DNA of 64,000 bases from Bosea sp. (in: a-proteobacteria). GTDB lineage: Bacteria > Pseudomonadota > Alphaproteobacteria > Rhizobiales > Beijerinckiaceae. Positions 37,304 to 60,238 of this stretch are shown one piece after another. The stretch covers positions 18,209 through 82,208 of the forward strand of contig DASYHC010000112.1 of NCBI GenBank assembly GCA_035998995.1, read 5' to 3'. The first letter of the stretch is position 1. Each line of letters starts with the position of its first letter. Under the pieces are notes generated by a model. The model saw only the letters and a list, made by a program, of their open reading frames with translations. It had not been told where the DNA came from and made no database searches. Both the position numbers and the translations under genes were made by a program.

Positions 37304-37318
37304 GACGGCGCCGTCCGG

Positions 37319-38022: not shown

Positions 38023-38539
38023 AAGTCACACAGGGGCGCTGGCCCAGGGCGCAGGCGGCGCGGGTGCGGCGTCTGCGGGGTGCGCATCGTTAGCGTTCAA
38101 AAGACGATGTTCGAGATGAAGGGAGCGTTCAGGCTTTCGCCGGAGGCCAGCACACCACCATGCCCAAATGTAACGGAAATACCGTGGGCAAAGCCGGTGA
38201 AATATGTGCTTCTCAGACACTCATCGAGGCCCTAAGTGCCTGAATCTATGCTTTTTGTCAACTCGATCACAACTTTCAGCGGCTTTCACGTTCGTTTTTC
38301 GGGTACTGAAACCCTGCGCTAATACCTTGAAGGCCCGAGCGAAAATCGATCTTTCCAGACGTCTGAAAAAAGGTGCTCGGAGGGCGTGCCTCCAGGGCGC
38401 TCGCGACGCCCTAAAATCACTTCAAATCCCGATCGCTTCCGCAGAGTCCGATTAAGTCTTCCGAGAGCAATTTGCGCTAGGTCGAGATGGCTTTCTGCGC
38501 GGCTGGCGTGCCAGTCGCCGCGCGCGAGGACTGGACGAG

Positions 38540-40081: not shown

Positions 40082-41331
40082 GCACGCTGGCGCAGCGGCA
40101 GGGTGATGCGCCCCGGCGCAGGGGGCTGACGATCTCCCATGCCGCGATCAAGCGCGGCACGCTGTGGCTCTTGCTGGCGGTGAGCTTCGTCGCGCTGGTC
40201 GAGCCCTCGCCTTACGAATTCGTCTTCCCGATCACGCTGCTGGTTTTTGCGATCACCGGCATCCGCTTCTCGCAGAAACTGCTGCCGATGGCGGTGCTTC
40301 TGCTCGTCTATAATATCGGCGGCGTGATCGCGCTGATCCCCTGGATGGACGAGGCGCCCTCGGTGCGCTTCACCGCCGTCTCGGTCTATCTGATGATCAC
40401 GGCGATCTTCTTCGCGGCGATCATGGCGGAGGACCCGCTCGGCCGGCTTGAGACGCTGCGCAAGGGCTATCTCTTCGCCGCCTGGTGCGCCGGCCTTGCC
40501 GCCGTGCTCGGCTATTTCGATGTCGGCGGTCTCTCAGGCGTCTTCACCTACGCCTCGCGGGCCTCGGGCACGTTCAAGGACCCGAACGTGCTCGGCCCCT
40601 TCCTGGTGCTGCCGCTGATCTACTTGCTGCATGCCGTGATCGTCGGCCGGATCGGGCTGGTGAAGGGCTTTCTGCTGCTGAGCATCCCGCTGCTGGCGCT
40701 GTTCCTGTCGTTCTCCCGCGGCGCCTGGGTCAATCTTGCGGTGTCGGCGCTGCTGATGACGGGGCTGACCTTCCTGACCTCGAGCAGCACGGCGCAGCGT
40801 GCCCGCATCGTCTTCCTGACGCTGGTGATGCTGGTGCTGCTGGTCGTGGCGCTCCTGATCGCGCTCTCCTTCGAGAACATCCGCGCCATCTTCGAGCTGC
40901 GCGCCAATCTCGACCAGGACTACGACCAGGGCGTCACCGGCCGCTTCGGCAATCAGCTGCGCTCGCTGCCGATGCTGCTCGACCTGCCGAACGGCTTCGG
41001 GCCGCTGCGCTTCCGCTTCCATTTCCCGGAAGACCCGCACAACGTCTACATCAACGGCTTTGCTTCCTATGGCTGGCTCGGCGGCTTCGCCTATCTGGCG
41101 CTGACCGCTGCGACCTGCATCGCCGGCTGGCGCGTCGTCTTCCGGCGCACGCCCTGGCAGGGCCATGCGATCGTGCTCTGGTCGGTGCTGTTCGTCACCA
41201 TCCTGCAGGGCTTCCAGATCGACACCGACCACTGGCGGCATTTCTACCTGATGCTCGGCCTGATCTGGGGCATGGCGGCTTTGCCCTCGCCTGCGCCAGG
41301 CGCTCAGCCTGCCTCGCGGTCGAGCGCGTAG
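40078..41331 (+). CDS. O-antigen ligase/polymerase family membrane protein (Wzy_C-like)
   Basis: About 10 TM helices with loop FLSFSRGAWVN typical of Wzy_C. TTG start overlaps the upstream stop. Confidence 0.8.
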   Translation: MSTLAQRQGDAPRRRGLTISHAAIKRGTLWLLLAVSFVALVEPSPYEFVFPITLLVFAITGIRFSQKLLPMAVLLLVYNIGGVIALIPWMDEAPSVRFTAVSVYLMITAIFFAAIMAEDPLGRLETLRKGYLFAAWCAGLAAVLGYFDVGGLSGVFTYASRASGTFKDPNVLGPFLVLPLIYLLHAVIVGRIGLVKGFLLLSIPLLALFLSFSRGAWVNLAVSALLMTGLTFLTSSSTAQRARIVFLTLVMLVLLVVALLIALSFENIRAIFELRANLDQDYDQGVTGRFGNQLRSLPMLLDLPNGFGPLRFRFHFPEDPHNVYINGFASYGWLGGFAYLALTAATCIAGWRVVFRRTPWQGHAIVLWSVLFVTILQGFQIDTDHWRHFYLMLGLIWGMAALPSPAPGAQPASRSSA

Positions 41332-41394
41332 CCAGAAGCTGTCGCCAAGCTCCGCGCCGACGTGGCCCAGAGCGAGCGGCATCCCACCGGTGGA

Positions 41395-41535
41395 TCAGTT
41401 GCACTCCGTCAGCTCGCCATTGCTGACCTTGTGGCTGTGGCAGGTCACGGGCGGTGTCGGCTCCTGCGCGCAAGCGGAGAGCGCGAAAGCGGCGAGCAGG
41501 AGGGCGGTTCTGATTCTGGCTGACCGGAACAGCAT
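41395..41535 (-). CDS. small putative lipoprotein
   Basis: MLFRSARIRTALLLAAFALSAC lipobox. Only 46 aa, so weak. Confidence 0.3.
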   Translation of the reverse strand: MLFRSARIRTALLLAAFALSACAQEPTPPVTCHSHKVSNGELTECN

Positions 41536-41775
41536 GCGACCGCATATCGGGAATTGGCGAAGGCGTTCGCACGTTGGCGCCGCCCGAGCCGGTTTCGTGC
41601 AAAGCCTATGGGCCAGCAACGGCGCTCATCGCGCCACGGGTCGAGATCGCCAAGCGGGGGCCGGCATCAGCCCCGCAGCGACCCTAGTCATCAGGCGTAT
41701 GGCGTTAACACCTATGTGTGGCTGACCGGAGCCCACTGGCCTGCCATTGTACTCATGCCCTTCGGGCGTTCCTCC

Positions 41776-41826
41776 CCAAAAAACTAGCCCGGCTCCGCTT
41801 CTGCGGACCGGGCTTCTTTCGTTTCA
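41776..41826 (-). terminator. bidirectional hairpin terminator, probable original terminator of the split tRNA-Pro gene
   Basis: AGCCCGGCTCCGC-ttct-GCGGACCGGGCT (12 bp, 1 bulge). T6 on the minus strand and a T-rich tract on the plus strand. Confidence 0.5.
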
Positions 41827-41952
41827 ACTGGTGGCCTTGCTTGCGCCAATCGATCTCGCGGACCGGCAGAGTCACGCTACCGTTTCGGTCCGAATCCGGA
41901 CCTGCCAGCCGGCACGGCGGCTGTTCTAATCTACTGAAAGAAGGGAATAAAA

Positions 41953-41978
41953 TGGTCGGAGCGAGAGGATTTGAACCT
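41953..41978 (-). pseudogene. 3' fragment of chromosomal tRNA-Pro(GGG): T-loop, T-stem, acceptor, CCA
   Basis: The minus strand reads AGGTTCAAATCCTCTCGCTCCGACCA. This complements the 5' fragment at 53179-53236. Confidence 0.85.
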
Positions 41979-42000
41979 TATACGCCCTGGTTGTGTTCAG
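41978..42000 (+). repeat. left terminal inverted repeat of the element
   Basis: TTATACGCcctggttGTGTTCAG compared with the reverse complement of 53155-53177, TTATACGCgatcgaaGTGTTCAG (18/23 identical). Confidence 0.7.
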
Positions 42001-42035
42001 TGTGTATGTAGATGCATGATCGCCTCGCGGCGTTC

Positions 42036-42245
42036 TCAACGCAAGGGGCCTCGCCTAATGGGCTCCTCGTCGTCGCGAGGAGGGAGCGGCACTCGGTCTT
42101 CGAACCGTGGCAACGGTGGAATGCCCTTCAGCCGGTGGAAGCGGTCGGAGATGGCCCTGACTGTCCGCCTATAGTTTTCGTGCCGCATCGGGTCGAATGT
42201 GGAGAGACCCGAAGGACTGTCACCATGGTCGCGGATGGTCGACAT
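42036..42245 (-). CDS. small hypothetical ORF (doubtful)
   Basis: 69-aa ORF overlapping the GNAT gene end. No motif and poor support. Confidence 0.2.
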   Translation of the reverse strand: MSTIRDHGDSPSGLSTFDPMRHENYRRTVRAISDRFHRLKGIPPLPRFEDRVPLPPRDDEEPIRRGPLR

Positions 42246-43032
42246 CGTGAGCCTCCTTGTAGGTGTCGAACAGATCAAACCCATGCGTGTCCCTGAAACT
42301 GAACGCACCGAGCCATCTGGTGCCTCGGTGTAGCATAATAGCCTTGCACAGGGACACAGACGTATTCGTGCCTTGTGGGCCCGGCCCGGGCACGCTTTGC
42401 GTGAAGACCAGGAGATCGCGCGCCGCCCGTCTGTCCTTCAGTGCAAGCACGGCGGCGACCGCGGCGTGCGTTTCCTCGTCGATCTCGCCTTGGGCGAGGC
42501 AGAGTGCGATCTTCTGGGTTGCCGACGGCACGATGTGGAAACGCCACGACGTCTCGTCCGGGAGGAAACCCATACTGAGCCAAGCGTAGCGCCCGATGTC
42601 CTCGGCCTCGATGTCGATGCTTTCCAGGCCGATCTTCCGACCGAGCTCGATGAGATTGATCATGAGCCCCGTCCCGATGCCCCGGCCTTGCAGATCCGGG
42701 TTGACCTGCGTCTCCCCGTCGCGAGCGATGGCTTCCGTGACCTCGAACCGCTTCGATTTCAGGAAGAGACGCGTGGTGTCGGGAGCGATGCCGCTGATCT
42801 CGATCTCGAACATCTCGGCCTCATGATCCAGGTTCGAGATCACGCCACGGATCGCGCCGGGAGCCCCGTCAGCGATCGCGTCGACGAACTGCTCCGGGAA
42901 CAGGCCGGCGGTTTCGAGGAAGCGGTCGTTCCACCACCGGGCGGCCTCGACGGACAGAGGCGGGTCGAAGCTCACGTACTGGTTGTCCGTGAAGCGGTCC
43001 GGCCATCCCTTCGGCGTTGCGTCGTCTGTCAT
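42220..43032 (-). CDS. GNAT-like acetyltransferase-fold protein (island cargo)
   Basis: LQGRGIGTGLM fits the GNAT motif A Q/R-x-x-G-x-G/A, followed by GRYAWLSMGF. The long N- and C-terminal extensions have no recognisable motifs. Confidence 0.55.
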   Translation of the reverse strand: MTDDATPKGWPDRFTDNQYVSFDPPLSVEAARWWNDRFLETAGLFPEQFVDAIADGAPGAIRGVISNLDHEAEMFEIEISGIAPDTTRLFLKSKRFEVTEAIARDGETQVNPDLQGRGIGTGLMINLIELGRKIGLESIDIEAEDIGRYAWLSMGFLPDETSWRFHIVPSATQKIALCLAQGEIDEETHAAVAAVLALKDRRAARDLLVFTQSVPGPGPQGTNTSVSLCKAIMLHRGTRWLGAFSFRDTHGFDLFDTYKEAHDVDHPRPW

Positions 43033-43252
43033 GGCCCTATGATATGGGGATGATCGAAAGCGACAATCGCGCAGATGCCGCAGAAGGCCGCTCCGGGCTC
43101 ACCAGGGATCATGGGCCCGCCTGACCCGCTGCGCCGCGCCCCGGCTCCTTCCCTTGCACCGAGGTGCTCGCCGGCAAGGGACGCTGCGCTCTTCGCCCTT
43201 GCCGGCTCCGCGCCTCGATGACCGCGGGACGCCGCGACGGCGGCTCCGGGGA

Positions 43253-45298
43253 TCAGGCTACGGCGACCTGGGATGCGGGCGGGGACATCCCTACCCAATC
43301 GAAGCCGACCCGCCGGCGGTCGGATGCCCATGGCCTCTCCAGAGCGGTCGCCAACGCCGACCGTTCCCCGACGACGACGACTTGCCTCTCGGCCCGGGTC
43401 ACTGCGGTGTAGAGCCACGATGGATCCAGCACCATCGATCGGTAGACCGGCACGATGACCCGCGCGGCCTGGCTGCCCTGGCACTTGTGGCAGGTCACCG
43501 CGTAGGCGAGGGCAAGGTCGATGAGCGCCCCCATTTCCGCAGGCGGGCGCCGTTCGAGGTCGCCGGACAGGAATCGGAATGTCCTCCCGTCGATCTCGGC
43601 GACGACCACGCGCTCAACCTCGTCGACCTCGACGACCTTTCCCATCGACCCGTTGAACAGGCCCAGCTTGTAGTCGTTCCGGAGATGGATGCAGGGGTCG
43701 CCCGGGCTGAACCACTCGCCGAGATGGCCCTTGATGACCGGGAGCCGCCGGGCCTGCTGCCGCGATCGCTGGAACATCCTGTTGAGGGGCCCGACGCCGG
43801 CGGGGCCGTCGTTGGTCGCGGTCACGACGACGAGCTCGCCGGCGTCGAAGCCGCCCAGATCGGCGGCCACCTTCGCAACGACGTCCGGGATGCCGTCCAA
43901 CGGGGATTCGACGAAGGAGACGCCGTCGACGGCACCGGCGTATTCCGGCAAGGGCGGCCACCTGCGATCGCGGACGGCCGCCGCCACCGCCGGGATGCCC
44001 GAGGCCTCGGTCTGACGGTGCACGACGCGCAGCCTCGCCGCGATGGCGTCGTCCATGACGAGCCGGTGATAGACAAGGCCGAACGAGATCGGAGGCAGCT
44101 GGGCCGGGTCGCCGACAAACAGGATGCGGGCACGATCGGGCACGTGACGCAGGAGGCGGTAGAGCGTGGAGAGATCCACCATCGACGCCTCGTCGATCAC
44201 GATCAGGGTGCGGTCGTCGATGCTGGCCAGGGCCGCGAGCTTCGTCCGGATGCGCCCGGCCCGCTCGGGCTCGGCGTCCTGGAGCTCATCTTCCAGCCGC
44301 CGCGTCTCGTCGAGCTCCCCGAGCAATCGGGCGAGCGTCCGCGCGAGGCGTCCGGACGCCCGCGAGAGCCGCAACGCGGCCTTGCCGGACAGCGCCGCGA
44401 GCAGCGTCGAGCCGCCCGTCGCCTCCCACGCCCGACAGACCGCACGGGTCGTGTGGGTCTTGCCTACGCCCGCGCCGCCGAGAAGGCAGGACACCGGGTT
44501 GGCGAGAACCTTGAACACCGCCGCGGCCTGCTCCGGATGAAGCCCCGCGAAATCGATGAGGGAGCCCTTCTGGAGGTCCTTAAGGACGCTTCGCGGCAGG
44601 GGCTCGGCCAAGCGCTGGATGACGGCCAGCTTGGCGACGACGTCCTCTTCCATCGTCGCGCAGCCCGGGAACCGGAGGGTGCCGTCCGCATCGACGAGCG
44701 CGCCGTTGCGCAATCCCGCGGCGATGGCCTCGCCGACGATCGCATCGGCCTCGCGCGCCCCGAGGAGGCGGGCGACCTCGCCCGGCAGGTCGGACAGGGA
44801 AATGGCGGTGTCGCCCCGCGAGATACCGGCCTTCGCGACCGCGTCGATCGAGCCGACCAGCCGCCGGAGATCCCTGCGCGGGTCCGGGACGCCTTCCTCA
44901 CGCAGGACGGCAAGCCCCAGCCGGTCGACCTTGGACCAGGGGAGGAGCGGCACGAGACAGTAGGGGTTTGCCGAAAGCCGCGTCGCCGCGTCGTCGCCCA
45001 GGATGCGGCAGAGCCGGCGCGCGAAGGCCAGGCCGTCCACGCCCCGCTCGGACAGCCACGAGATCGTCGCGGCCTCCCCGGCGGCCTCCTTCCAGGCCGA
45101 GACGGCCATGGCGGCGAGGCGGAGGGCCAGCAGGGGCCGATCGCGATCGAGCGCGGCGGCGATGGCGGGCACCTTCGATTCGTCGGAGAGGACGGATGGA
45201 AGGCTATCGCCGAAGGCCTCGCCCAGGCGCCGCGCACGCTCGGGCCCGATGCCCTGCACCCGTGAGGCGACGTAGTCCCGGACAAGCGTCCCCGGCAT
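43253..45298 (-). CDS. RecD-like SF1 DNA helicase
   Basis: N-terminal HhH-like VQGIGPERARRLGEAFG. Walker A LLGGAGVGKTHT, Walker B LIVIDEASMVD, FVGDPAQLPPI, and C-terminal AYAVTCHKCQGSQA...LYTAVTRA. The ATG overlaps the upstream stop (ATGA). Confidence 0.85.
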   Translation of the reverse strand: MPGTLVRDYVASRVQGIGPERARRLGEAFGDSLPSVLSDESKVPAIAAALDRDRPLLALRLAAMAVSAWKEAAGEAATISWLSERGVDGLAFARRLCRILGDDAATRLSANPYCLVPLLPWSKVDRLGLAVLREEGVPDPRRDLRRLVGSIDAVAKAGISRGDTAISLSDLPGEVARLLGAREADAIVGEAIAAGLRNGALVDADGTLRFPGCATMEEDVVAKLAVIQRLAEPLPRSVLKDLQKGSLIDFAGLHPEQAAAVFKVLANPVSCLLGGAGVGKTHTTRAVCRAWEATGGSTLLAALSGKAALRLSRASGRLARTLARLLGELDETRRLEDELQDAEPERAGRIRTKLAALASIDDRTLIVIDEASMVDLSTLYRLLRHVPDRARILFVGDPAQLPPISFGLVYHRLVMDDAIAARLRVVHRQTEASGIPAVAAAVRDRRWPPLPEYAGAVDGVSFVESPLDGIPDVVAKVAADLGGFDAGELVVVTATNDGPAGVGPLNRMFQRSRQQARRLPVIKGHLGEWFSPGDPCIHLRNDYKLGLFNGSMGKVVEVDEVERVVVAEIDGRTFRFLSGDLERRPPAEMGALIDLALAYAVTCHKCQGSQAARVIVPVYRSMVLDPSWLYTAVTRAERQVVVVGERSALATALERPWASDRRRVGFDWVGMSPPASQVAVA

Positions 45299-45762
45299 CA
45301 GGCGAGGTCGCCGGTGCGGAGGACCATGCCCGTCTCGCCGAGGAGCCGGATCTGCTCCGTCAGCGAGGCGATCGTCCGCCGCTGACGCTCGATCAGGGCC
45401 TCCCGTTCGGCCAACGCCCGGGCCAGGTCGTCCCTGTCGGACTGGGCCCGGCCCAGGCGATCCTTGGCGGCCTTGTCGATGACGTCGGTCAACGCACGTG
45501 CCCCGATCGGCTTGACGCCTTGCCGGACGGCGACCGAGTTCACCAGCGCGGCGAGCTCGGGCTTCTTGTAGAAGTGCTGCTCCTGGGCCTGTGTGAGCCC
45601 GCAGACCTCGACGGCGAAGGCGCGGACGTTGACCTTGCCGTCGTCGGTCATCGGCAGCGTCGGTCGCCGTCCCTCCTCGGGCTGCGCCTCCCACGCCGCG
45701 TCGAGCGCCTCCAGCCGCTCGCCGACGAGAGGGACGAGGGTTTCGAGGATCGAGCGCGGCAT
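45298..45762 (-). CDS. small HTH-like/coiled-coil protein (second ginD-like gene)
   Basis: 154 aa. VNVRAFAVEVCGLTQAQEQHFYKKPELAALV, then heptad-rich LARALAEREALIERQRRTIASLTEQIRLL. Start shares 1 nt with the upstream stop (TGATG). Confidence 0.6.
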   Translation of the reverse strand: MPRSILETLVPLVGERLEALDAAWEAQPEEGRRPTLPMTDDGKVNVRAFAVEVCGLTQAQEQHFYKKPELAALVNSVAVRQGVKPIGARALTDVIDKAAKDRLGRAQSDRDDLARALAEREALIERQRRTIASLTEQIRLLGETGMVLRTGDLA

Positions 45763-46271
45763 CAGCCGTCCTCTCTCAACTGGACGACCGGTGCGGAAGG
45801 AGCCAGGCCGACGACATGGTCGGGGCGACCATTCCGGGCGTTCCGACCGGCACGGCGAGCCATGCTCTTGGCGTGCTGGATCTGCTTGTGTGCCACGTTG
45901 ACCGCGTCCTGGAGACGAGTGGCCAGGATCGCCTTTTCCTGCCGGAGCAGCGCGTTTTCCTGTCGGAGCGCGGCGATGGTGCTCTGGGCGTCGAGCTTCG
46001 GCGTGGGCGCCCGTGGTGCGGCGACCTGAGCCTCCATGCAGGCGAGCACTTCCCGCCGGACATCGGGGTAGGCGCAGCCCTCGATGCCGATCAGCGTCCG
46101 GCTGCGGTTGGCTTCCTTGGCGACGGAGGCGACGCTGATCCGAAGCCTGCCTTCGCGCTTTGCCTTGACGTTGTCCGGATGGAGCGGCTGCCCGCGCCGC
46201 AGACGACCCAGCGCCGCGCGCAGGTCGGCTCCGGCGTCGGGACCGGTTTGGATGTTCGTCTCACGCGGCAT
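45762..46271 (-). CDS. small HTH-like/coiled-coil protein (ginD-like position)
   Basis: GGGAGG RBS precedes the ATG at 46271 (GTG at 46277 also possible). ISVASVAKEANRSRTLIG, then the zipper IAALRQENALLRQEKAILATRL. Overlaps the recombinase C stop. Confidence 0.6.
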   Translation of the reverse strand: MPRETNIQTGPDAGADLRAALGRLRRGQPLHPDNVKAKREGRLRISVASVAKEANRSRTLIGIEGCAYPDVRREVLACMEAQVAAPRAPTPKLDAQSTIAALRQENALLRQEKAILATRLQDAVNVAHKQIQHAKSMARRAGRNARNGRPDHVVGLAPSAPVVQLREDG

Positions 46272-48288
46272 CGGCACCTCCCATCACGACATTCATCTTG
46301 CGAAGGATCGCCTCCGCGGTCGCCACGCGCTCGGCGGCCACCGCGGCGATGGCGTGCTCGCCGGCGGCGCGGCCCTCGTCCCGAAGCCGGAGGTTCGTCG
46401 CGAGCCGCTCCTTCCAGAAGGGTTCGTGGGTCTCGGCGACGAGCAGGTTTGAGCAGGAGCAGCAGACGCCCGGCTGCCGGTGCGAATAGCGCGGCCGTCG
46501 CGCGGCGAGGTCGAAGGCGCCGACGGCCTGATGGTGGCAACGGGCGGTCTCCGGCCGGAACAGGCAGGCGCCCCATGCCGCCCCCCAGACGCGCACGTCG
46601 TCCTCCGCCACCGCGGAGGTGAGCCGGGCGAGGCGGTCGGCATCGGTGCCTTCGGTTCCCATCAGCGCCTCGATCGATCCGGCGTTCTCCCGGATCGTGT
46701 CGGCCATCTTGCCGGCGACGCGACCGGTCCCGTTGACGGCGTCGAACAGGAGGCGGGCGGCCTCGCGAGTCGCGACGTCGTCGAGCAGGCCTAGGAGCTC
46801 GGGGTCCGATCCGAGGTATCCCTGCTCAGTCATGGCCAGGGACATGTGCTTGAAGTGGTCGGACAAGGCGGGCAGCAACCTCTCGTCCGAGCGGACGACG
46901 TATTGCGCGAAGGACTTGCGCCATTGGTGTGTGCTCAAACGCCAATCCCGGAAGCCGTCCGGCAAGTCCACGAAGTCTCGCATGAACCGGACCTGGCCTT
47001 CGCGTAGGTCGTCGCTCAATACGCCGGCGGGCCGGGACTCGGCCGCCGGGTCGTGCCAGAAGGCTCTGGACGACAGGATGAGGTCCGACAGGCTCCGCGC
47101 TTCGCGCCAACGCCGGAAAAGGCGCTCCAGCACCAGGATCGCCTCGACGGGCGGCGGGATCACCGCCGTGCCGACCGGGCGGGAGCCCGCCACCCACTCG
47201 ACCTCCTGCCATTGGTGCCGTCCCTTGAAGACGCGACCGCGGACGTAGAAGATCTCGTTGAGGCCGCTCGCCGAGGGCCTGACCTCTACGCAGGCCGGCC
47301 AGCCCGTTTCCGGATCGACCGGCTCGGCCTTCAGGCCGGCGACCTCGCTGATGCGCATCCCGAGCATGGACTGGAGCACGATGGTGCACGCCGAGCGCAG
47401 GTCGTGGATGAGCCGGCGCATGCGCCGGATCTCGCTTAGTTCCAGCTCCTCGCCCGACTTAGTCCATCCAAGCAACGGATCGATCGCGGGGTTGCGGTCC
47501 TCGCTCCACATCCGGTTGAGGTCGCGATTGAGGCGGTAGCTGTAGGAATTGGACATGCGGGAGGTCTCGCCGTTCTTGGCGTGATAGGCCCGCGCCCACT
47601 CCACGATCAGGTCCGCGCGCTTCCCGAGCCAGCACAGGGCCTCGGGGACGACGGCGAGGAAGACGGGGTCCGGCACGGGCGGGATCGCCCCGGCGACCCG
47701 GGAGCCCAGCGTCCTCGCGACGGCGTAGGCGGCCTCGCCGCCAAAAGGATGCTCGGGCATGACCGCGCCGTCCGTGCCCGACAGCGCGGCGCGCTGTTCA
47801 TGGATGCGGACCAAGACGTCGAGATGGACGGCGAGCTTGATGGCCGTGACGTCTTCCTCCGAGCCGTTCGCCTTGTCGGCGACGAGATGCGCGACGAAGT
47901 CCCGCGCTAGATCGGCGTCGAGCTCCGCGAAGCTCGACACGCCCGCCGTCGCCATCCAGCGGACCAGGTAGCGAAGGCCGAACCCGATATCGGCGATCGT
48001 GGCGTCCTTGAGCTGCGCCCCGCGGTTGTTGGCCGATCTCAAGGACCAGACGAAGCGTCGGCACATTTCGAGCAGCCGGGACCACTTCGGATCGGTGAAG
48101 ACCGACCCGTCGGGCATGTCGAAGTCCCAGAGCACGACGGGCTCGCGCTTTCCCGCCGTTGTGGACGGAAATCGCCAAGAAGGATCTCCCCAGAGGCTCT
48201 TCGCGGAGACCTGGATGATACTGATCGGCATCCTCGCGATGCGCACGGGAGCCTGTTGGCGGTCGAGCGTGACGAGCCTGTTTACCAT
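46261..48288 (-). CDS. tyrosine recombinase C (large, 675 aa)
   Basis: SMLGMRISEVAGL (Arg I), STHQWRKSFAQY (H-x-x-R), DHFKHMSLAMTEQGYLG (His/Tyr). Cys-rich C-terminal tail (C..C-H-H...CCSC). Confidence 0.85.
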   Translation of the reverse strand: MVNRLVTLDRQQAPVRIARMPISIIQVSAKSLWGDPSWRFPSTTAGKREPVVLWDFDMPDGSVFTDPKWSRLLEMCRRFVWSLRSANNRGAQLKDATIADIGFGLRYLVRWMATAGVSSFAELDADLARDFVAHLVADKANGSEEDVTAIKLAVHLDVLVRIHEQRAALSGTDGAVMPEHPFGGEAAYAVARTLGSRVAGAIPPVPDPVFLAVVPEALCWLGKRADLIVEWARAYHAKNGETSRMSNSYSYRLNRDLNRMWSEDRNPAIDPLLGWTKSGEELELSEIRRMRRLIHDLRSACTIVLQSMLGMRISEVAGLKAEPVDPETGWPACVEVRPSASGLNEIFYVRGRVFKGRHQWQEVEWVAGSRPVGTAVIPPPVEAILVLERLFRRWREARSLSDLILSSRAFWHDPAAESRPAGVLSDDLREGQVRFMRDFVDLPDGFRDWRLSTHQWRKSFAQYVVRSDERLLPALSDHFKHMSLAMTEQGYLGSDPELLGLLDDVATREAARLLFDAVNGTGRVAGKMADTIRENAGSIEALMGTEGTDADRLARLTSAVAEDDVRVWGAAWGACLFRPETARCHHQAVGAFDLAARRPRYSHRQPGVCCSCSNLLVAETHEPFWKERLATNLRLRDEGRAAGEHAIAAVAAERVATAEAILRKMNVVMGGADAA

Positions 48289-48292
48289 CGTC

Positions 48293-50152
48293 TCACTCCA
48301 GATCCGGCAGCGGCGGCAAAGTCACCGACGAAGCCTTGTGCACCGTCGCGGCGGGGAACCGCGGCAGCCAAACCGACCGCAGGGCCTCGGCCTGGGGCAG
48401 CCAGACATCCATCCACCGGACGGGATGCACGCGCGACCGGGCGACTTCCATCTGCGCCGCAAGCTGGGACAGGCGCAGGAAAACCTTGGGATCGCCGACG
48501 TCGACGCAGGCGAGCGGACACGCCGGGCATTGCCCGTAGGCGGTGCAAGCCTGCCCATCGCGCTGACCGGGCAACGGCGAGAACAGCGGCTCGAAACAGG
48601 AGAAGCCCGGCGTCGCTGCGCTGCCCCGGCCAGCGTCGAGGAAGCCGTTTCGCGTGTCGGCACGACCGCCGGTGGCGACGAAGCGCTCCCGCCACGCCAT
48701 GGCGGTGGCGAGCGCCTCACGGCCACGCTCCCTCATGGTGGACGTCTCGTAGGAGCGGTGTGTCGTCGACACCGTAGCATGGCCCAGCAAGACCTGGTTC
48801 GCCTTGATGTCGCCTCCGCTCGCGATATCGACCAGATCGGATGCCGTCTTGCGCATCATCGACATCGTGAAGGCCGGCAGCCCATAGTCCGCGATGAAGG
48901 TGGCGAGGCCGCGATGCCAGAAACCGTCGCCGGCGGCGCCTTCCCCCGCGTCGAAGCCGCCATATGTCTCGGCGCGCGGGGTCCAGAAGACGAACACCCG
49001 GTCCCGGTGGCGCTCGTCCACGTGCCGGCGCGTGAAGCGGGTGAGCCGTTCCAGGGTCCGAAGCAAGTTGACCGGCGCCTCGGGGGCCGAGAGCCCTGCC
49101 GCAAATGAGCGGTAGTGCTTCCGCTTGGCTCGCGCCTTCCGCGCGCCGACCCGCCATCTCGCTTCGCCGAAAAGCGGATGGCTCCGTTCGACGTCATGCC
49201 ATTCCAAGGTCAACAGGCCTTCGGGGTTGAAGGCCCCGTCTATGGCCAGGAGCAATGCGAAGGGCACGATCGCGCGCGGCGAGAGATGCAGCGCGGACGC
49301 GACCTCCGCGTAGGAGCCGTAAGGGGACACCATCGAACGGGCGAGGCCGTAATCGCTCGCGGCGAGCAGGTCGCGCGCGGGGATGCGCGAGTCGTAGCGC
49401 TGGACGAGCGCGGCGAGCCGCACGACGGGGTCGCGATAGGGCGTTACGGAGCGGGCGCCGGGAGATGGCAACCTATCCGGAGACATCAGTTCGGCCCTGT
49501 CCGCGATCTCCATCCGCGCGACCGTCTCCGCGATATCGTCGATGCATGCCCTCCTGATCAGGGACAGGTCGAGATGGGAAACGGCCTCGCGCGGCCGGAC
49601 CTGACGGTGGTTCAGAGGCCAGGGATTGCGCCTGAAGCCGAAGTCCCGATCGCGGATGGGTGCGCCTCGCGCCGATGACCGCAGATGGTCGAACAGGTCC
49701 GCGACCGCACGGTAGCGCTGCGTCTTGGTCAGCCCCGACCAAGGTGTCCCATCCGACTCGCCGGTGTTCAGCCACGCCTCGAAGCGTGCGATCGCGTCCG
49801 CGTCGATGTCAGCCAACGTTTCGACGGACGAGCCTTCGAGCAGGAAGGCAAGAAAGGGGTTCAGGATCTTCGCGATGCCCTGCCGGGTCGACCGGGCGAG
49901 AAGCCCCTTGGTCGACAAGTACTCAGCGACGGCGAGACCGATGTCGCGCCTGATCAGCCAGTTCGATAGGTCGATCTCCTGCACGCCTCCGGCGCAGGTC
50001 GCGTCGCGGAAGCGCACCAACAGCCGATCCGGCTGCTCCACGACGCCGAAGATGACCGGCAGCCTCGCGGGAACCGCTTCCTTCGCCTTCGGCAGCAGAT
50101 GGGCGGGAACGGCGCGCCCGGCGCGTCGCCTGAGCGGTTCAGGCGAGCGCAT
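48293..50152 (-). CDS. tyrosine recombinase-family protein B (619 aa, atypical active site)
   Basis: MSMMRKTASDL and LLGHATVSTTHRSYE give a recombinase box II. Box I reads DGAFNPEGLL with no Arg. Cys-rich tail C..C..C..C. Confidence 0.75.
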   Translation of the reverse strand: MRSPEPLRRRAGRAVPAHLLPKAKEAVPARLPVIFGVVEQPDRLLVRFRDATCAGGVQEIDLSNWLIRRDIGLAVAEYLSTKGLLARSTRQGIAKILNPFLAFLLEGSSVETLADIDADAIARFEAWLNTGESDGTPWSGLTKTQRYRAVADLFDHLRSSARGAPIRDRDFGFRRNPWPLNHRQVRPREAVSHLDLSLIRRACIDDIAETVARMEIADRAELMSPDRLPSPGARSVTPYRDPVVRLAALVQRYDSRIPARDLLAASDYGLARSMVSPYGSYAEVASALHLSPRAIVPFALLLAIDGAFNPEGLLTLEWHDVERSHPLFGEARWRVGARKARAKRKHYRSFAAGLSAPEAPVNLLRTLERLTRFTRRHVDERHRDRVFVFWTPRAETYGGFDAGEGAAGDGFWHRGLATFIADYGLPAFTMSMMRKTASDLVDIASGGDIKANQVLLGHATVSTTHRSYETSTMRERGREALATAMAWRERFVATGGRADTRNGFLDAGRGSAATPGFSCFEPLFSPLPGQRDGQACTAYGQCPACPLACVDVGDPKVFLRLSQLAAQMEVARSRVHPVRWMDVWLPQAEALRSVWLPRFPAATVHKASSVTLPPLPDLE

Positions 50153-51614
50153 CGAGTCGCTCCTTCAAGAGGCGCGCGAAGGTGTCGGAGATCTCCGGCT
50201 CCCGGGTCTCGACGTGGCGCAGGTAGATGTCCTGGGTCGTGCTCAGGCGCTTGTGGCCCAGCCGCGCCTGGAGCTTCTTCCAGGGGGCGGGGTTGCCGGC
50301 CTGGATTTCGGCCCAATAGAATTGGCAGGCGAAGGTGTGCCGCAGGTCGTGAAAGCTGTGCTTCGCGACGTCGCGCGCTTCGAGGATCTCCTCGCCGTGT
50401 TCGTCGATGGCCGGCGACCCCGTCGAAGGATCGATCCGATAGGTGGTCTCCGTCCGCGTCAGCCCGGATGCGAGCACGGAGGCATGGAAGGCGCGCATCG
50501 CCGTCGCCGGCGACGTCTTGCCTCCGACGTCCCGGCTTGTGGATCGAATTCCGTTCAGGAAGAGCGCATTGGAGGCGTTGCGGCCACGCTGCTTCGCCGA
50601 CCTGACGACCGACGCGCGCTCGCCATCGATGTAGGCTAGCAGAGCCTTCACAAGGAAAGCTGGGATCACGACCGTGCGGGGAACCCCGCCCTTGGCGACG
50701 GTGATCCGCAAGGGCAAGGGCCGCCAGCGATCGGACAGGTCCTCGCCCCGTGCGACGTCGAGGATCTGGTAGATCGTCAGGCCGACGACTTCCTCAACGC
50801 GCATGCCGGTGTAGAGCGATGTCTCGGCGATCAGCCGGTCACGGGTCGCGCGAGCGTCGTTGTCGTCGATGTCGTATGGGGAGGCCCCTAAACCGTCGAG
50901 GATGGCCGTGAGGTCTCCCATCGCGATCGGGTTCACGTGCTCGTCCACCGCCGCCGGTCGTGGACGGAGAGGGCTCGCCGCGGCGACGCGGATGCCGCCG
51001 GTATGAGGCAGGAACGCCCTGTCGATGTCCACTAGGCGCTTGGTCCCCGCTTCCACGACAGGGCATTCCTCGACAAGGCCGTGCCGGTGCGACCAGCGAT
51101 ACAGCGCCTCGACCGTGCCGATCCGGCGCGAGATCGTCGCGGACGAAAAACGGCGGCCACGGGTGGATACCCCCTCGACCAAGGCTTGCGCATAGGCGCG
51201 CAGGTCATCCGCCCCTACCGCGTCCCATCCCAGGCCGTGCAAGCGCAGATACGTCCACCAATGGACGAGATCGTCGGCATAGGCGGTCTGGGTCTTCTGC
51301 CACCGTCCGCGGCGGGCGGGGACGTGGCAGTGGTCCAGCAGAAACAAGTTGGCCGGCTCGATAGGATTGAGATCGTCGTCGAAGAGCATGACGAACCCCG
51401 CCGGCGTGCGGAGTCCCCGCATGGTAGCGCCGTCGAAATCGCCGGCCTCGTCGACGGAGTAGTCGACGGCCCTGATGCGATGGATCGTCGCCATGGCGAA
51501 GTTCTGATTGTCGTTGTCGCCGTCCACGCCCCGCACCGCGCATTGCTTCCCGAGGCGAGAGACGTCGACGACGCTCGCGTTCCGTTCGGGTTCGATCCTC
51601 GCTCGGGCGACCAT
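50139..51614 (-). CDS. tyrosine recombinase A (491 aa)
   Basis: SLYTGMRVEEVVGL (Arg I), HSFHDLRHTFA (H-x-x-R), ARLGHKRLSTTQDIYL (His, Tyr). 14-nt overlap with the recombinase B start. Confidence 0.85.
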   Translation of the reverse strand: MVARARIEPERNASVVDVSRLGKQCAVRGVDGDNDNQNFAMATIHRIRAVDYSVDEAGDFDGATMRGLRTPAGFVMLFDDDLNPIEPANLFLLDHCHVPARRGRWQKTQTAYADDLVHWWTYLRLHGLGWDAVGADDLRAYAQALVEGVSTRGRRFSSATISRRIGTVEALYRWSHRHGLVEECPVVEAGTKRLVDIDRAFLPHTGGIRVAAASPLRPRPAAVDEHVNPIAMGDLTAILDGLGASPYDIDDNDARATRDRLIAETSLYTGMRVEEVVGLTIYQILDVARGEDLSDRWRPLPLRITVAKGGVPRTVVIPAFLVKALLAYIDGERASVVRSAKQRGRNASNALFLNGIRSTSRDVGGKTSPATAMRAFHASVLASGLTRTETTYRIDPSTGSPAIDEHGEEILEARDVAKHSFHDLRHTFACQFYWAEIQAGNPAPWKKLQARLGHKRLSTTQDIYLRHVETREPEISDTFARLLKERLDALA

Positions 51615-51637
51615 GACTCGCGCAGCTCCAGAAACCG

Positions 51638-52600
51638 TTACGATCGAGCCCGGCCCAAGGGCCGAATTCGGTCATGGTTATCGAAATCGAGGCCCGCGAG
51701 CGTCGTCGCAGGGGCGAGCGCCGTCGATCGCTCGATCAGTCTCGCCAACTCGACGGCCACCAAGGCGGCGTCGCGTGCGTGCTCGCTGCCGAGCGACACG
51801 GCCTGCGCCGACTTCAGCACGGCATGGGCTGTCGGATCGAGCGTCGCGACCGGCGCCGCCAGCCCGTCCCGTCCGACGACGAAGCCAGCGCGCGGCGCTC
51901 CTTCGAGCGCCGAGGAGACGGCCCGGATCGCGTCGAGCTCGGGGAGCGTGGCGATGAAGGCTTCCAGCACTTCCGAGGCGTCGTGGACGTGGATGCGGAG
52001 GCCGCTGGATCCGACGATGGCGGTGCCATCGGCGTGCCAGGCTTCGTCGGGCCGGGCCGCCCGAAGGGCTCCGCCAATCGAAGGCAGGACGTCCGACACC
52101 AACCCGTCCGGTACGAGAAGGTCGATGTCGGCCAGCTCTGCCTCGACCCGAACGCGGGCCTCGACGGCATGGGCGTGGGTGGCGCAGCCTCCTAGGAGCA
52201 TGCATGCCTGCCAGAGGCCCGCGCGGTCGAAGGCGCGAAAGACGTCGGCGACCGGTTGGGGCACCAGCGCGAGGCGGAACGCACGCGCGGCGCGCGACAC
52301 ATCGGCCATGCGGGGGCCGAGGCTGCGACGCTCGGCTGCGACGCTCTCGCGAGCGGCATAGAAATCGCCATACTCGGCCTCCGTCGCCGGCGAACGACGA
52401 CCGCGAGACCGCGCCTGCTTCTTCTTGGTGGTCGGATCGGTCCAGAAGCGGGTCAGGTAGTCCTGCCCGGCGACGTTCTTCCACTGAAAGCCGCCGCCCA
52501 ACCCTTCCTCGCGCTGAAGGAGGGATCGATGCAGGCGATCGACCGTCATCACGTCGTCGAGAACGCGAGACTGCTCGGCAGAGAAGGGAATGAAATGCAT
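51638..52600 (-). CDS. nucleotidyltransferase-fold protein (GSU2403-family-like, from memory)
   Basis: GGGFQWKNVAGQDYLTRFW...SRGRRSPATE...LLGGCATHAHAVE...ADIDLLV resembles that family as I recall it. ATG at 52600 or 52612. First gene of the recombinase operon. Confidence 0.5.
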   Translation of the reverse strand: MHFIPFSAEQSRVLDDVMTVDRLHRSLLQREEGLGGGFQWKNVAGQDYLTRFWTDPTTKKKQARSRGRRSPATEAEYGDFYAARESVAAERRSLGPRMADVSRAARAFRLALVPQPVADVFRAFDRAGLWQACMLLGGCATHAHAVEARVRVEAELADIDLLVPDGLVSDVLPSIGGALRAARPDEAWHADGTAIVGSSGLRIHVHDASEVLEAFIATLPELDAIRAVSSALEGAPRAGFVVGRDGLAAPVATLDPTAHAVLKSAQAVSLGSEHARDAALVAVELARLIERSTALAPATTLAGLDFDNHDRIRPLGRARS

Positions 52601-52641
52601 TTTGATACCCATAATGGATCGAACCAATATTGGGTATCAAA
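52601..52641. promoter_or_regulatory. perfect 11-bp inverted repeat flanking a T-loop-like core
   Basis: TTTGATACCCA-taatGGATCGAACCaatat-TGGGTATCAAA, directly at the 5' end of the recombinase operon. Confidence 0.6.
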
Positions 52642-52692
52642 TCGCTCCAGACAATGCGCGTCGCGGTTGTTCGTTAACGGGTGGTGAAGAAG

Positions 52693-52767
52693 TGGTCTGG
52701 GATCTCGGGATCGAACCGAGGGCCTGCACGCCCCAAACGCGCCGCTCTACCGCTGAGCTAATCCCAG
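52693..52767 (-). tRNA. tRNA-Pro (anticodon UGG), island-borne
   Basis: The minus strand folds as CTGGGAT TA GCTC AGCGGTA GAGC G GCGCG TTTGGGG CGTGC AGGCC CTCGG TTCGATC CCGAG ATCCCAG A CCA. C1-G72 and A73 are Pro identity elements. Confidence 0.9.
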
Positions 52768-52964
52768 GAAAGGGATCGCCGAAACGGAATTAGGAGTGTT
52801 CAGTCAAGGCGAGAGAAGGCGGGCGTCTGAGCACCTGCAATCTCGAAAAAGCCGTTCAGGATGAATGGAGTAGCGCCGATTGAACATGTGCAGAGCATGT
52901 TCAATAATTGCAGATCGCTGTGCGAACTGGGCGGCAAATTCAGGCCAGTGGTGGTGGAGGGGGA

Positions 52965-53006
52965 GATGATGGGCTGGACCCACATAAAGCAGTCCAGCCC
53001 ATCATC
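52965..53006. other. 15-bp perfect stem hairpin between the two island tRNAs
   Basis: GATGATGGGCTGGAC-N12-GTCCAGCCCATCATC. No U-tract, so function is unknown. Confidence 0.5.
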
Positions 53007-53052
53007 AGCAGAGCGGCGATTTCCAGCCAAGTGCTTGAAATCATTGACTTTT

Positions 53053-53130
53053 TGGTCGGAGTAGCAGGATTTGAACCTGCGACCCCATGTCCCCCAGACA
53101 TGTGCGCTAACCGGGCTGCGCTATACTCCG
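53053..53130 (-). tRNA. tRNA-Pro (anticodon GGG), island-borne replacement copy
   Basis: CGGAGTA TA GCGC AGCCCGGTTA GCGC A CATGT CTGGGGG ACATG GGGTC GCAGG TTCAAAT CCTGC TACTCCG A CCA. It differs from the split host copy only by compensated stem changes. Confidence 0.9.
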
Positions 53131-53154
53131 TCAAGGAAACCGCTCTGAAAACTC

Positions 53155-53177
53155 CTGAACACTTCGATCGCGTATAA
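53155..53177 (-). repeat. right terminal inverted repeat of the element
   Basis: Plus strand is ctgaacacttcgatcgcgtataa. See the left repeat at 41978-42000. Confidence 0.7.
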
Positions 53178-53178
53178 C

Positions 53179-53236
53179 GAACCTCCGACCCCTTGTCCCC
53201 CAGACAAGTGCGCTAACCGGGCTGCGCTACGCTCCG
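53179..53236 (-). pseudogene. 5' fragment (nt 1-58) of chromosomal tRNA-Pro(GGG)
   Basis: The minus strand reads CGGAGCG TA GCGC AGCCCGGTTA GCGC A CTTGT CTGGGGG ACAAG GGGTC GGAGG TTC and then breaks. Confidence 0.85.
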
Positions 53237-53245
53237 ACGGGTCGG

Positions 53246-53274
53246 CTTATAGAGCGAGCGTCGCCGCGATGCAA
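53246..53274 (-). promoter_or_regulatory. sigma-70-like promoter of the (now split) tRNA-Pro gene
   Basis: Minus strand TTGCAT-N17-TATAAG. The -10 element ends 9 nt before tRNA nt 1. Confidence 0.55.
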
Positions 53275-53495
53275 CGCGGCAATTGCCGGTAGACAGCGCT
53301 CGATTCACAGCGGCCTGCCATGATGTGGCCGCGGCGCGACTTCGGCCGGCGTGATGCCTCTCCGGAAGGATGTTGGTCATGCCGGCGACCATCCGGCCAC
53401 GGCGCGGCAACGCGGCGAGGCGAAAAGCCGCGCGGCGGCCAATCCAGAGTTCAGCCGACCGACCATGTCCCCGACTTTCCTGGCGGCACAGATCG

Positions 53496-53777: not shown

Positions 53778-53950
53778 CGTCTCTCTCCTTGCCGCAAGGC
53801 GCGGCTCGGAGGTTACAACGCGCCAAATGCCGATCGGTGCCCGAGCGGCACGATGGTCTCGGTCCGGACCTGTCTTTTGACCGCTGCCGCCGCGCGTAAC
53901 CCGTGGTACAGATTCGCAAAGCGGATAATCGGAAGCGGCGGCACGACACT

Positions 53951-56665: not shown

Positions 56666-56788
56666 GGCCGGAGCTTTATGAAGGCGCAGCCGCAACAGCA
56701 AGGATTCATTAACGAATTCTGTTCAAATGCGGTTCACAGGGTGAAGGTTATCTTCATGATACTGGCACCGATTCGTGGAGGCCCCGTC

Positions 56789-56938
56789 ATGACTATGGAC
56801 TGGCGCAACAGCCTGATGCTCGGCTTCATCGCGGCCGTGTTCGTCGCCTGCCTGTTCGGCCCCTATATGATCTCGGTGATGCTCGGCGGGCTCGGCCTGA
56901 CGTGCTATCTCTCGAAGCACATCAGGCCTGAAGCCTGA
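56789..56938 (+). CDS. small putative membrane protein (doubtful)
   Basis: About 49 aa with two hydrophobic helices. Weak support. Confidence 0.25.
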   Translation: MTMDWRNSLMLGFIAAVFVACLFGPYMISVMLGGLGLTCYLSKHIRPEA

Positions 56939-56943
56939 CCCTA

Positions 56944-57573: not shown

Positions 57574-57638
57574 GGCACGCCTCCTTTCTGAGAGTTTTCG
57601 CAAAGGCGCCCCGCCCGAAGGCGGGGCGCCTGTACGGT

Positions 57639-58571: not shown

Positions 58572-58756
58572 GATGTCGTCCTCCGGGCTGCAGGACGCTG
58601 CCCTCGTTGGGCACAAAGATGATTGCGGTTCGGCAAAATGCCAGATCGAGTTCATTGCACCATAGCAATGTTATTCTCTGAAATTGCCAATTTGAATTGC
58701 CAAATCGAAATCGCCATTCTCTGCCGCAGACCAAACCGGTCCTTCGGAGAAAGACC

Positions 58757-59182: not shown

Positions 59183-59277
59183 GCTTCCCCTGCTCATCAC
59201 GACAGAACGGGCGACAGGTTGCTGCAACCTGTCGCCCGTACCATGTTCAGGGAGCTGACTTCCCTGGAGCCGCCCGC

Positions 59278-60231: not shown

Positions 60232-60238
60232 CGAGCCG

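Follow-up and report, generated by a model that had tools for sequence, protein, structure and literature searches.

The DNA analysed here (the window) is a stretch of 64,000 nucleotides of contig DASYHC010000112.1 from the Bosea sp. assembly GCA_035998995.1. Within it, a host tRNA-Pro(GGG) gene is split in its T-loop by an 11.2-kb island, which carries three genes of the tyrosine recombinase type and, just inside its left end, a complete tRNA-Pro(GGG) gene of its own. The 90%-identity clusters of the flanking proteins point to a Bosea host (Alphaproteobacteria). The two parts of the host gene lie at the left (attL) and right (attR) junctions of the island, respectively:

53179..53236, minus strand: 5' fragment of the host tRNA-Pro(GGG), nucleotides 1-58, ending in GGTTC (ARAGORN and comparison with relatives)
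41953..41971, minus strand: displaced 3' end of the host tRNA-Pro(GGG), comprising the T-loop remainder, T-stem, acceptor strand, and CCA

Read on the minus strand, the segment from 41978 to 41953 is AGGTTCAAATCCTCTCGCTCCGACCA, which supplies what the 5' fragment lacks, from the T-loop through the T-stem and acceptor strand to the CCA; both island borders contain GAACCT. ARAGORN detected no tRNA in either border piece alone and none across attL. A preliminary description of this DNA, made from the sequence alone, had placed a split by inserted DNA here and had taken it that the joined pieces would score as a tRNA. Its coordinates were correct, and ARAGORN scores the 78-nt in silico join as tRNA-Pro(ggg) with a perfect cloverleaf. 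These junctions recur in six independent metagenome/SRA contigs (L061-L066), and the split is therefore not an assembly artefact. In Bosea sp. Root483D1 and B. vestrisii, whose tRNA is intact, nucleotides 1-58 are 100% identical to the 5' fragment. The conserved upstream region of the host tRNA is kept beside it, at 53237-53300, and this upstream (promoter) region is conserved in three Bosea genomes.

The empty site was found in two sister species, as had been expected of close relatives. The genome of Bosea sp. Root483D1 aligns to positions 30091-41598 (91%) and 56690-64000 (90%) of the window, and between these flanks it carries a single intact tRNA-Pro(GGG), on the same strand and with an Rfam score of 61.5 bits, and no island. 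B. vestrisii likewise has an intact tRNA between the same flanks, without the island. From these empty sites it follows that the inserted DNA spans one T-loop break to the other, with both of the tRNA genes described below included. An uninterrupted tRNA was also present in 14 metagenome contigs, some with recognisable flanks: the O-antigen-ligase flank (79% identity) only in L074, and the distal fatty-acid-synthesis flank (66-75%) in nine.

Two intact tRNA genes, which had escaped mention in the preliminary description, were detected inside the insert with ARAGORN and Rfam:

53053..53130, minus strand: island tRNA-Pro(GGG), an intact replacement copy (ARAGORN; Rfam 63.7 bits)
52693..52767, minus strand: second island tRNA-Pro, anticodon UGG (ARAGORN; Rfam 56.2 bits)

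The earlier statement that the island destroys its target is thus misleading, as four lineages conserve a complete replacement tRNA-Pro(GGG), which in the window starts 48 bp from attL, within the island. Because the island carries this intact copy, the cell probably keeps a tRNA-Pro(GGG).

These four diverged lineages make up the subclade of elements that split tRNA-Pro(GGG): Bosea type A (the window and L064-66), Bosea type B (L061-63), Microvirga arvi BT689 (L001), whose large recombinase, rec3, is 53% identical, and L086-89, in which the host tRNA-Pro(GGG) has a different sequence. In all four, the host tRNA is cut after nucleotide 58-59, a complete tRNA-Pro(GGG) lies within the element, starting 37-48 bp from its left end, a nucleotidyltransferase gene follows the tRNA, and the tRNA 3' piece lies at the far end.

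Covariation was tested in a cloverleaf alignment of seven different tRNA-Pro(GGG) sequences from hosts and islands. Stem pairs were standard in all seven sequences at 21 of 21 positions, with 11 pairs changed on both sides, and every stem difference between host and island tRNA was compensatory, pairing being kept. This level of covariation was reached by 0 of 500 shuffles, and no slid control came close. The anticodon loop was invariant across the seven tRNAs, the D-loop showed a single difference (in the Microvirga island copy), and differences in the T-loop were confined to its fourth position. Between the window and L064-66, the island tRNA is identical at 78/78 positions and the 125-nt left end is also 100% identical, while the islands overall are 85% identical; in comparison with L061, the tRNA is identical at 77/78 positions and the islands are 76% identical. 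To judge from these alignments, the island tRNA-Pro(GGG) is conserved and covaries as expected of a gene that is selected to work as a tRNA.

The second island tRNA-Pro has the anticodon UGG in the lineage of the window and CGG in the lineage of L061-63 (96% identity); its coordinates are 5525-5599 in L061 and 5526-5600 in L064. A C:C mismatch leaves a D-stem position unpaired in the CGG copy of L061. Since the anticodon differs between lineages and the D-stem of L061 is mismatched, this tRNA looks less constrained, and the CGG form may be a live gene whose anticodon has switched or else a gene at an early stage of decay.

The ends of the element are marked by imperfect 23-bp inverted repeats, which contain two perfect 8-bp blocks, and by the 6-bp spacers next to them:

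53155..53177, minus strand: left terminal inverted repeat, TTATACGCGATCGAAGTGTTCAG, its two perfect 8-bp blocks matching the right end
41978..42000, minus strand: right terminal inverted repeat, CTGAACACAACCAGGGCGTATAA, an imperfect complement of the left end
53178..53183, minus strand: attL 6-bp spacer, GGTTCG, identical to the T-loop core of the native target site (attB)
41972..41977, minus strand: attR 6-bp spacer, GGTTCA, which differs from the native Bosea attB, GGTTCG

The distance between the terminal inverted repeats is 11,200 bp (41978-53177). The left repeat has the form TTATACGC...GTGTTCAG, and the right repeat is its complement. The native Bosea T-loop is GGTTCGAAT and the native T-arm GGAGG-TTCGAAT-CCTCT; in the window, attL reads GGA-GGTTCG-TTATACGC and attR reads GCGTATAA-GGTTCA-AATCC, so that the sequence shared by attL and attR is only (A)GGTTC(R), or 6-7 nt. 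The attR spacer, differing as it does from the host attB, was probably brought by the element. The attL spacer is invariant, being GGTTCG in 7/7 Bosea junctions, and the attR spacer varies among near-identical elements: the window and L066 have GGTTCA there, L064 and L061-63 have GGTTCG, and L086/87 and L088/89 differ at attR only (A versus G).

The terminal motifs were found only in the tRNA-Pro-splitting lineages and in L095, a more distant relative (rec3 43% identical) without a tRNA and without the nucleotidyltransferase gene; the contig of L094 stops a short way upstream of rec1 and so carries no information on this point. At positions 9382-9450 of L095, the sequence CCCCATATAA-GATTCA-TTATATGAGG corresponds to the right end, a 6-bp spacer, and the left end, directly joined. 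This junction may be that of either an assembled circle or a head-to-tail tandem; no terminal overlap of the L095 contig was found.

The recombination module consists of four genes. Their products are listed with the positions that they would occupy in the operons of SEs (integrative elements with strand-biased circularization; IntA, Tfp, IntB, Srap) or GInt elements (GinA, GinD):

50139..51614, minus strand: rec1, canonical tyrosine recombinase, 491 aa, IntA/GinA position (Phage_integrase 2.8e-13, SAM_1 2.6e-08, phrog_1 1.7e-22)
48293..50152, minus strand: rec2, degenerate recombinase-like protein, 619 aa, Tfp position (phrog_1 5e-4; alignments)
46261..48288, minus strand: rec3, large tyrosine recombinase, 675 aa, IntB position (4a8e 1.1e-5; phrog_216 4e-8; match to SE IntB)
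45762..46277, minus strand: sm171, small conserved protein, 171 aa, Srap/GinD position (after rec3 in ca. 38/60 loci)

Three co-directional genes of the tyrosine recombinase type at one end, followed by cargo, had been listed from the open reading frames, and both the layout and the family assignment hold: the three proteins match PHROGs with E-values of 1.7e-22, 5e-4, and 4e-8, respectively, and the rec3 profile matches the XerC-like structure 4a8e (E=1.1e-5) across the Arg I and HxxR boxes. In an alignment of 31 rec3 sequences, R312, K355, R457, H481, and Y491 are invariant and H454 is present in at least 90%. Rec2 lacks Arg I, in place of which it has a conserved FNP motif, and keeps R434, H458, and Y468; its box II aligns to XerA with E=0.1, and in UniRef it is labelled as containing a core-binding (CB) domain. 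Rec1 and rec2 cluster with the Bosea thiooxidans proteins ARD30_00865 and ARD30_00860, respectively, the representative of the rec2 cluster being 100% identical to rec2 of the window. The structure model of rec3 (pLDDT 80) had FLP and lambda integrase as top Foldseek matches, with whole-chain E-values above 0.1 (not significant). That of rec2, built from a 9-sequence alignment (pLDDT 68), had Cre, YopR, and FLP, with E-values of 0.5-4 (not significant). By their profile matches and alignments, we conclude that rec1 is a tyrosine recombinase, that rec3 is one as well, though diverged, and that rec2 is a degenerate member of the family.

A conserved four-cysteine cluster follows the catalytic domain in both rec2 (C519/C536/C542/C545) and rec3 (C575/C584/C609/C612), and a comparable motif, C-x4-G-C-x2-C, is present in SE Tfp. 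The clusters may form a zinc-binding domain; to our knowledge, no such domain has been seen in ordinary tyrosine recombinases.

Homologues of rec3 are few among near relatives, and a word-indexed search with rec3 gave 35 clusters. A scan of species-representative genomes revealed 60 loci in Alpha-, Beta-, and Gammaproteobacteria, Acidobacteriota, and Verrucomicrobia; the order rec1-rec2-rec3 is conserved in ca. 55 of the 60, usually followed by sm171. In an exhaustive profile search with rec3, counted as clusters at 50% identity, 2,784 clusters were found at E<=1e-3, 1,624 at E<=1e-10, and 647 at E<=1e-30. By tblastn, rec3 relatives were found in 148 plasmid records, among them 31 from Agrobacterium and 30 from Pseudomonas, and also in sphingomonads and Mesorhizobium; the records include P. 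aeruginosa plasmids of 177-527 kb. The wider rec3 family is thus common and almost unstudied, and the tRNA-splitting subclade is rare.

Other tRNA genes were seen near family members. In L007 (Steroidobacteraceae), an intact tRNA-Pro(UGG) at 6583-6658, with the T-arm GGAGGTTCAAATCCTCT as in the window, lies 190 bp upstream of rec1. In L019 (Thalassospira lucentensis), two tRNA-Gln(CUG) genes, 3166-3239 and 4312-4385, which are 92% identical, lie upstream. The ARAGORN calls in L023 and L031 are doubtful, and those in L043 and L052 are an ordinary tRNA-Gly and an ordinary tRNA-Met. No split tRNA fragments were found in any of these six loci.

The module was compared with those of known multi-recombinase elements. 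SEs of Vibrionaceae have the operon intA-tfp-intB-srap (PMC10214605), and the SE of pAQU1 was taken as the reference. The genes come in the same order, with an ordinary recombinase first, then a degenerate protein, a large complete recombinase, and a small protein, and the sizes are alike (545/614/671/161 aa in pAQU1 versus 491/619/675/171 aa in the island). Rec3 matched SE IntB (hhalign 96.6%, E=6e-10; BLASTP 2.5e-5) through the H-x-[WF]-R-[KR]-S-F-A ... F-K-H ... G-Y region. Sm171 and Srap share the motif AL.RL..G.P...G.L...EAG..R..I, and both rec2 and Tfp have Asn at the Arg I position and a C-terminal Cys motif. The terminal inverted repeats of SEs are, like those of the island, imperfect and arranged around a 6-bp spacer, with lengths of 13-19 bp (PMC10214605) versus 23 bp. 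By the SE rule, the 6 bp of the target stay by the left motif, at attL, and the 6 bp of the element go to attR (PMC10214605); in the island, too, attL keeps the target 6 bp and attR carries a different 6 bp, an asymmetry that is consistent with this rule and does not prove it. Neither kind of element carries conjugation genes. Four-gene operons on P. aeruginosa and K. pneumoniae plasmids are gene-for-gene homologous to the island module and match SE IntA, IntB, and Srap by BLASTP.

There are differences as well. Tfp is described as having no catalytic motif, whereas rec2 keeps Arg II, His, and Tyr; the tRNA-splitting subclade adds the nucleotidyltransferase, a small protein (sm154), and a RecD2-like helicase; and the main text of the SE paper never mentions "tRNA", so no tRNA target or replacement gene is described there (PMC10214605). 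SEs were reported only from Gammaproteobacteria, and PSI-BLAST revealed no Tfp or Srap homologue in Alpha- or Betaproteobacteria (PMC10214605). Based on gene order, protein sizes, inverted repeats around a 6-bp spacer, and the homology of rec3 and IntB, the module is assigned as SE-like. These features point to a distant relative of the SE module within a broad SE/GInt/Tn554 group, for which SE-like is a better label than GInt.

The island was also compared with other known systems. With classical tRNA-gene islands and prophages it has in common a tyrosine-recombinase insertion in a tRNA gene, a displaced fragment that marks the far end, and a working tRNA that is kept. According to the Islander paper (PMC4383910), the norm is that islands restore the split tRNA, by means of one integrase and an attP that has tens of bases identical to the 3' part of the tRNA, so that the target is regenerated. 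The Bosea island, in contrast, shares 6-7 bp with its target, the tRNA at the junction is dead, and a full-length gene with different stems substitutes for it. Regeneration of the Islander type is not what is seen at attL, where the spacer is followed by TTATACGC in place of AATCCTCTCGCTCCGACCA. Tn554, as described in PMC10214605, is similar in that it is site-specific, leaves a 6-bp footprint at the junction, and has an ordinary and a large tyrosine recombinase with a small protein as the third. By the same description, it differs in that tnpA-tnpB-tnpC has no middle degenerate protein and comes from the Firmicutes Staphylococcus and Enterococcus (PMC10214605); neither genus is among the 10 most frequent genera or the best 50 of the 148 plasmid records with rec3 relatives. 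RIT elements also have three recombinases in a row, all of them catalytic and 315-410 aa long (PMC10214605, Table 1), versus 491/619/675 aa with a non-canonical rec2 here; that the island is not a RIT trio had been argued before from the sizes, and we agree. Neither in the GInt, SE, and Islander papers nor in literature searches did we find a multi-recombinase element at a tRNA or a whole-gene replacement of a tRNA described.

We consider it likely that the insert is a site-specific multi-recombinase element of the SE/GInt/Tn554 type, which inserts in the T-loop of tRNA-Pro(GGG) and compensates for the damage by replacing the whole gene. Its current mobility, the details of its strand exchange, the expression and function of the replacement tRNA, and what the nucleotidyltransferase, sm154, and the RecD2-like helicase do are things that we infer. 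Rec1, rec2, rec3, and sm171 would recognise the two imperfect terminal inverted repeats, and strands would be exchanged across the 6-bp spacer GGTTCR at the start of the tRNA-Pro(GGG) T-loop; the tRNA T-arm is itself an inverted repeat around this spacer. As only 6-7 bp are shared with the target, the element cannot rebuild the tRNA. In the inserted state, the island tRNA lies downstream of the retained host promoter, ca. 106 nt from where the dead host tRNA starts. It would most likely be co-transcribed with the dead 5' fragment and freed by RNase P and 3' processing, and would restore CCC/CCU decoding. A scan of the stretch that leads from the host promoter region to the island tRNAs gave no terminator-like site. 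Given this result and the conserved host upstream region, read-through from the host promoter is the simplest route.

Several points weigh against this interpretation. A sigma-70 scan of the minus strand found no promoter upstream of either tRNA, so the read-through model relies on the conserved host upstream region; the proposed host promoter, TTGCAT-17-TATAAG, was read by eye and matches 8/12 positions. It is conservation and covariation alone that suggest a function for the replacement tRNA. Compensation may not be strictly required, as another tRNA-Pro(GGG), or tRNA-Pro(UGG) reading CCC/CCU, may serve the cell. The match of sm171 to Srap is borderline (profile E=2.3e-4, probability 44%, 35% identity over 46 columns), and homology between rec2 and Tfp, though the two are collinear, was not significant (hhalign 1.9%). 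The structure model of rec2 is poor across the catalytic region (pLDDT below 50 at residues 435-549), and the Foldseek matches of the rec2 and rec3 models to recombinases are suggestive only. Few independent events lie behind the spacer asymmetry, which ordinary heteroduplex resolution could also yield.

If movement is SE-like, that is, by copy-out with the donor site staying occupied, the target would never be restored. A spare gene would then be the only way to occupy a needed tRNA, and the host would be made dependent on the element. A stronger version of the preferred interpretation, which we hold to be doubtful, is that the SE-like copy-out element acts as an addiction device: it would kill the host's only tRNA-Pro(GGG) and place its own diverged copy under the host promoter, so that its loss would leave the cell without CCC/CCU decoding, and the lineage-specific nucleotidyltransferase may have tRNA as its substrate, for instance telling the island isoacceptors apart or repairing them. 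If true, the island would hold a maintenance system based on tRNA, for which no counterpart has been described among mobile elements.

We think it unlikely that the internal tRNAs are ordinary cargo, acquired for codon supplementation or as captured host DNA, with the host tolerating the disruption as its CCC/CCU codons are read by other tRNA-Pro species. E. coli can do without its GGG isoacceptor (proL), since the cmo5UGG tRNA reads all four proline codons, which favours this alternative, as do the lineage-variable anticodon of the second tRNA-Pro, its unpaired D-stem position in L061, and the weaker constraint that these indicate. Cargo of this kind does not explain why the carried tRNA has the anticodon of the target in all four lineages, across three host backgrounds, or why it always adjoins the junction with the host promoter. 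The carried tRNA is also far better conserved than the rest of the island, and family members that do not target this tRNA carry no such gene.

It is very unlikely that the island is a canonical GInt (ginABCD, as in Pseudomonas Pht-PAI and P. stutzeri DSM 4166) whose insertion does no more than destroy the target and so deprives the cell of tRNA-Pro(GGG). The attraction of this alternative lies in architecture, by which the GInt class is mainly defined, with very low sequence conservation between GInt families (PMC5385486). Both the GInts and the island have a four-gene operon with three recombinase-like proteins and a small one at one end, cargo next to it, a far end that is mildly richer in AT, high target specificity, short imperfect border repeats, and a 6-7-nt staggered exchange, as proposed for GInts (PMC5385486), with attR/attI variants; and attL of the island lacks the 3' half of the tRNA, as simple destruction would have it. 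This alternative is opposed by the intact tRNA-Pro(GGG) just inside attL in all four lineages and by the sequences of the proteins. BLASTP with the published P. stutzeri GinA/B/C fragments (Figure S1 of the GInt paper) gave no matches. Full-length GinC and GinD were taken from pT75-VIM (this GinC is 77-95% identical to the P. stutzeri GinC fragments), and in profile comparisons GinC versus rec3 scored 0.3% in hhalign and GinD versus sm171 0.7%. Canonical GInt membership was therefore rejected at the sequence level.

The GInt architecture itself differs in several respects. The degenerate protein is the third in GInts, where GinC has no first catalytic arginine and GinA and GinB are complete (PMC5385486), and the second in the island, where R312 of rec3 is invariant. 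GInts have imperfect direct repeats of 10-17 nt, versus the 6-7 nt shared in the island. GInts are known to target protein-coding genes (those for an ABC transporter, a ribonucleotide reductase, and HU, and also ssb), and they limit damage by outward promoters or insertion at the 3' end, not by a spare gene; the word "tRNA" occurs nowhere in the GInt supplement (PMC5385486). In addition, a PSI-BLAST survey found no ginC-ginD blocks in Alphaproteobacteria (PMC10214605). The island had been called GInt-like in the preliminary description. That name stands for the architecture (operon, cargo, and AT-rich end) and falls for GinC/GinD similarity, the position of the degenerate protein, and the 10-17-nt direct repeats. 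A canonical gin operon was observed at 5833-12567 of a Pseudomonadaceae plasmid (L083; pT75-VIM, CP113227.1), where it is truncated by an IS21-family element and lies directly upstream of tmexCD, so that a GInt remnant stands beside a tigecycline-resistance efflux cluster.

It is hardly credible that the island is a relic that can no longer move, or that it was put together by two unrelated insertions (a small tRNA-bearing segment beside a recombinase element), as might be suggested by the lack of an observable excision product in the window and by the rearranged region around the tRNA in Bosea genomes, given that the core open reading frames are all intact, that near-identical elements (L064, L065, L066) have different flanks and different attR spacers, that sister species have clean empty sites, and that in each of the four lineages matching terminal repeats enclose the tRNA, the nucleotidyltransferase, and the recombinase block.

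Read as an element that replaces the gene it splits, the island would represent a second solution to living in a tRNA gene, with a whole spare gene in place of regeneration from a long shared sequence. The spread of the four-gene module would also widen the host range of SE-like elements to Alpha- and Betaproteobacteria, Acidobacteriota, and Verrucomicrobia. Island finders that rely on a regenerated tRNA and a displaced fragment will misplace or miss such elements, and annotators will count the island tRNA as a host tRNA. The finding should interest mobile-element specialists, for whom this small system (11.2 kb, with defined ends and clean empty sites in sister species) is a testable model for excision versus copy-out of SE-type elements.

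The remaining genes of the island are as follows:

51638..52627, minus strand: putative nucleotidyltransferase-fold gene, start codon uncertain (PF12281, 28.1 bits; cut-off 26.3)
45298..45762, minus strand: sm154, small protein always paired with the helicase (no family match)
43253..45298, minus strand: RecD2-like SF1B helicase, 681 aa (AAA_30 2.4e-37, UvrD_C_2, TIGR01448 6e-82)
42220-43032, minus strand: cargo, weak GNAT-like gene, 270 aa (Acetyltransf_1 E=7e-4, just below cut-off)
42036-42308, minus strand: cargo, small open reading frame beside the GNAT-like gene (cargo region 42036..43032)

On the minus strand, the order is thus tRNA-Pro(GGG), tRNA-Pro(UGG), nucleotidyltransferase, rec1, rec2, rec3, sm171, sm154, helicase, and the GNAT-like gene with the small open reading frame. 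All core open reading frames are intact. This content agrees with the earlier listing of a nucleotidyltransferase fold, recombinases, a RecD-like helicase, and GNAT-like cargo. The two small genes listed there as helix-turn-helix/coiled-coil proteins exist, although neither has a family match and only the first (171 aa) is conserved family-wide. The nucleotidyltransferase gene has a conserved GG...DxD motif and was found in tRNA-carrying lineages only. The ATG of the helicase gene overlaps the sm154 stop codon. Both cargo genes are shared with L064 and L066 and are missing from L061-63. The GC content of the island is 67.6%, the same as that of the flanks, with 55% in the tRNA region and 59% in the last 300 bp; the AT-richer far end reported earlier is real, if only mild.

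PADLOC gave generic RecD-like helicase matches only, and a defence-system reading of the cargo was rejected. The pair of sm154 and the RecD2-like helicase (43253-45762 in the window) follows the recombinase operon in a subset of the family (L001, L017, L018, L044, L045, L049; at ca. 12.5-15.4 kb of each locus), which includes members from Acidobacteriota, Azospirillum, and Massilia that do not target this tRNA. The pair looks like an optional accessory module.

Several observations concern the surroundings of the island. The orientation of the tRNA-Pro(GGG) relative to the O-antigen-ligase gene is flipped in Bosea type B (L061, 5067-15342) and in the empty-site contig L074 (1658-1735), compared with the window, Root483D1, and B. 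vestrisii. Judging by this orientation, the segment around the tRNA-Pro(GGG) is inverted or rearranged between Bosea lineages. Outside attR, a segment of ca. 350 bp (41599-41952) is absent from Root483D1, B. vestrisii, and every other locus compared. This segment does not belong to the island. At 41750-41828, on the plus strand, it contains a sub-threshold Rfam match to the alphaproteobacterial small RNA mmgR/suhB (RF00519, 36.8 bits; gathering score 41), which ends with a stem-loop and a U-run.

The 5' side of the host tRNA adjoins a gene for a 920-aa hybrid histidine kinase/response regulator (open reading frame 53903-56665, plus strand, within 53779-56689), with HisKA and HATPase_c domains and two receiver domains. 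At the same position, Root483D1 has a small SH3_3 gene and no kinase, and L064 has a chemoreceptor gene. From these differences in gene content, the 5' flank of the tRNA is evidently a second variable spot, independent of the island.

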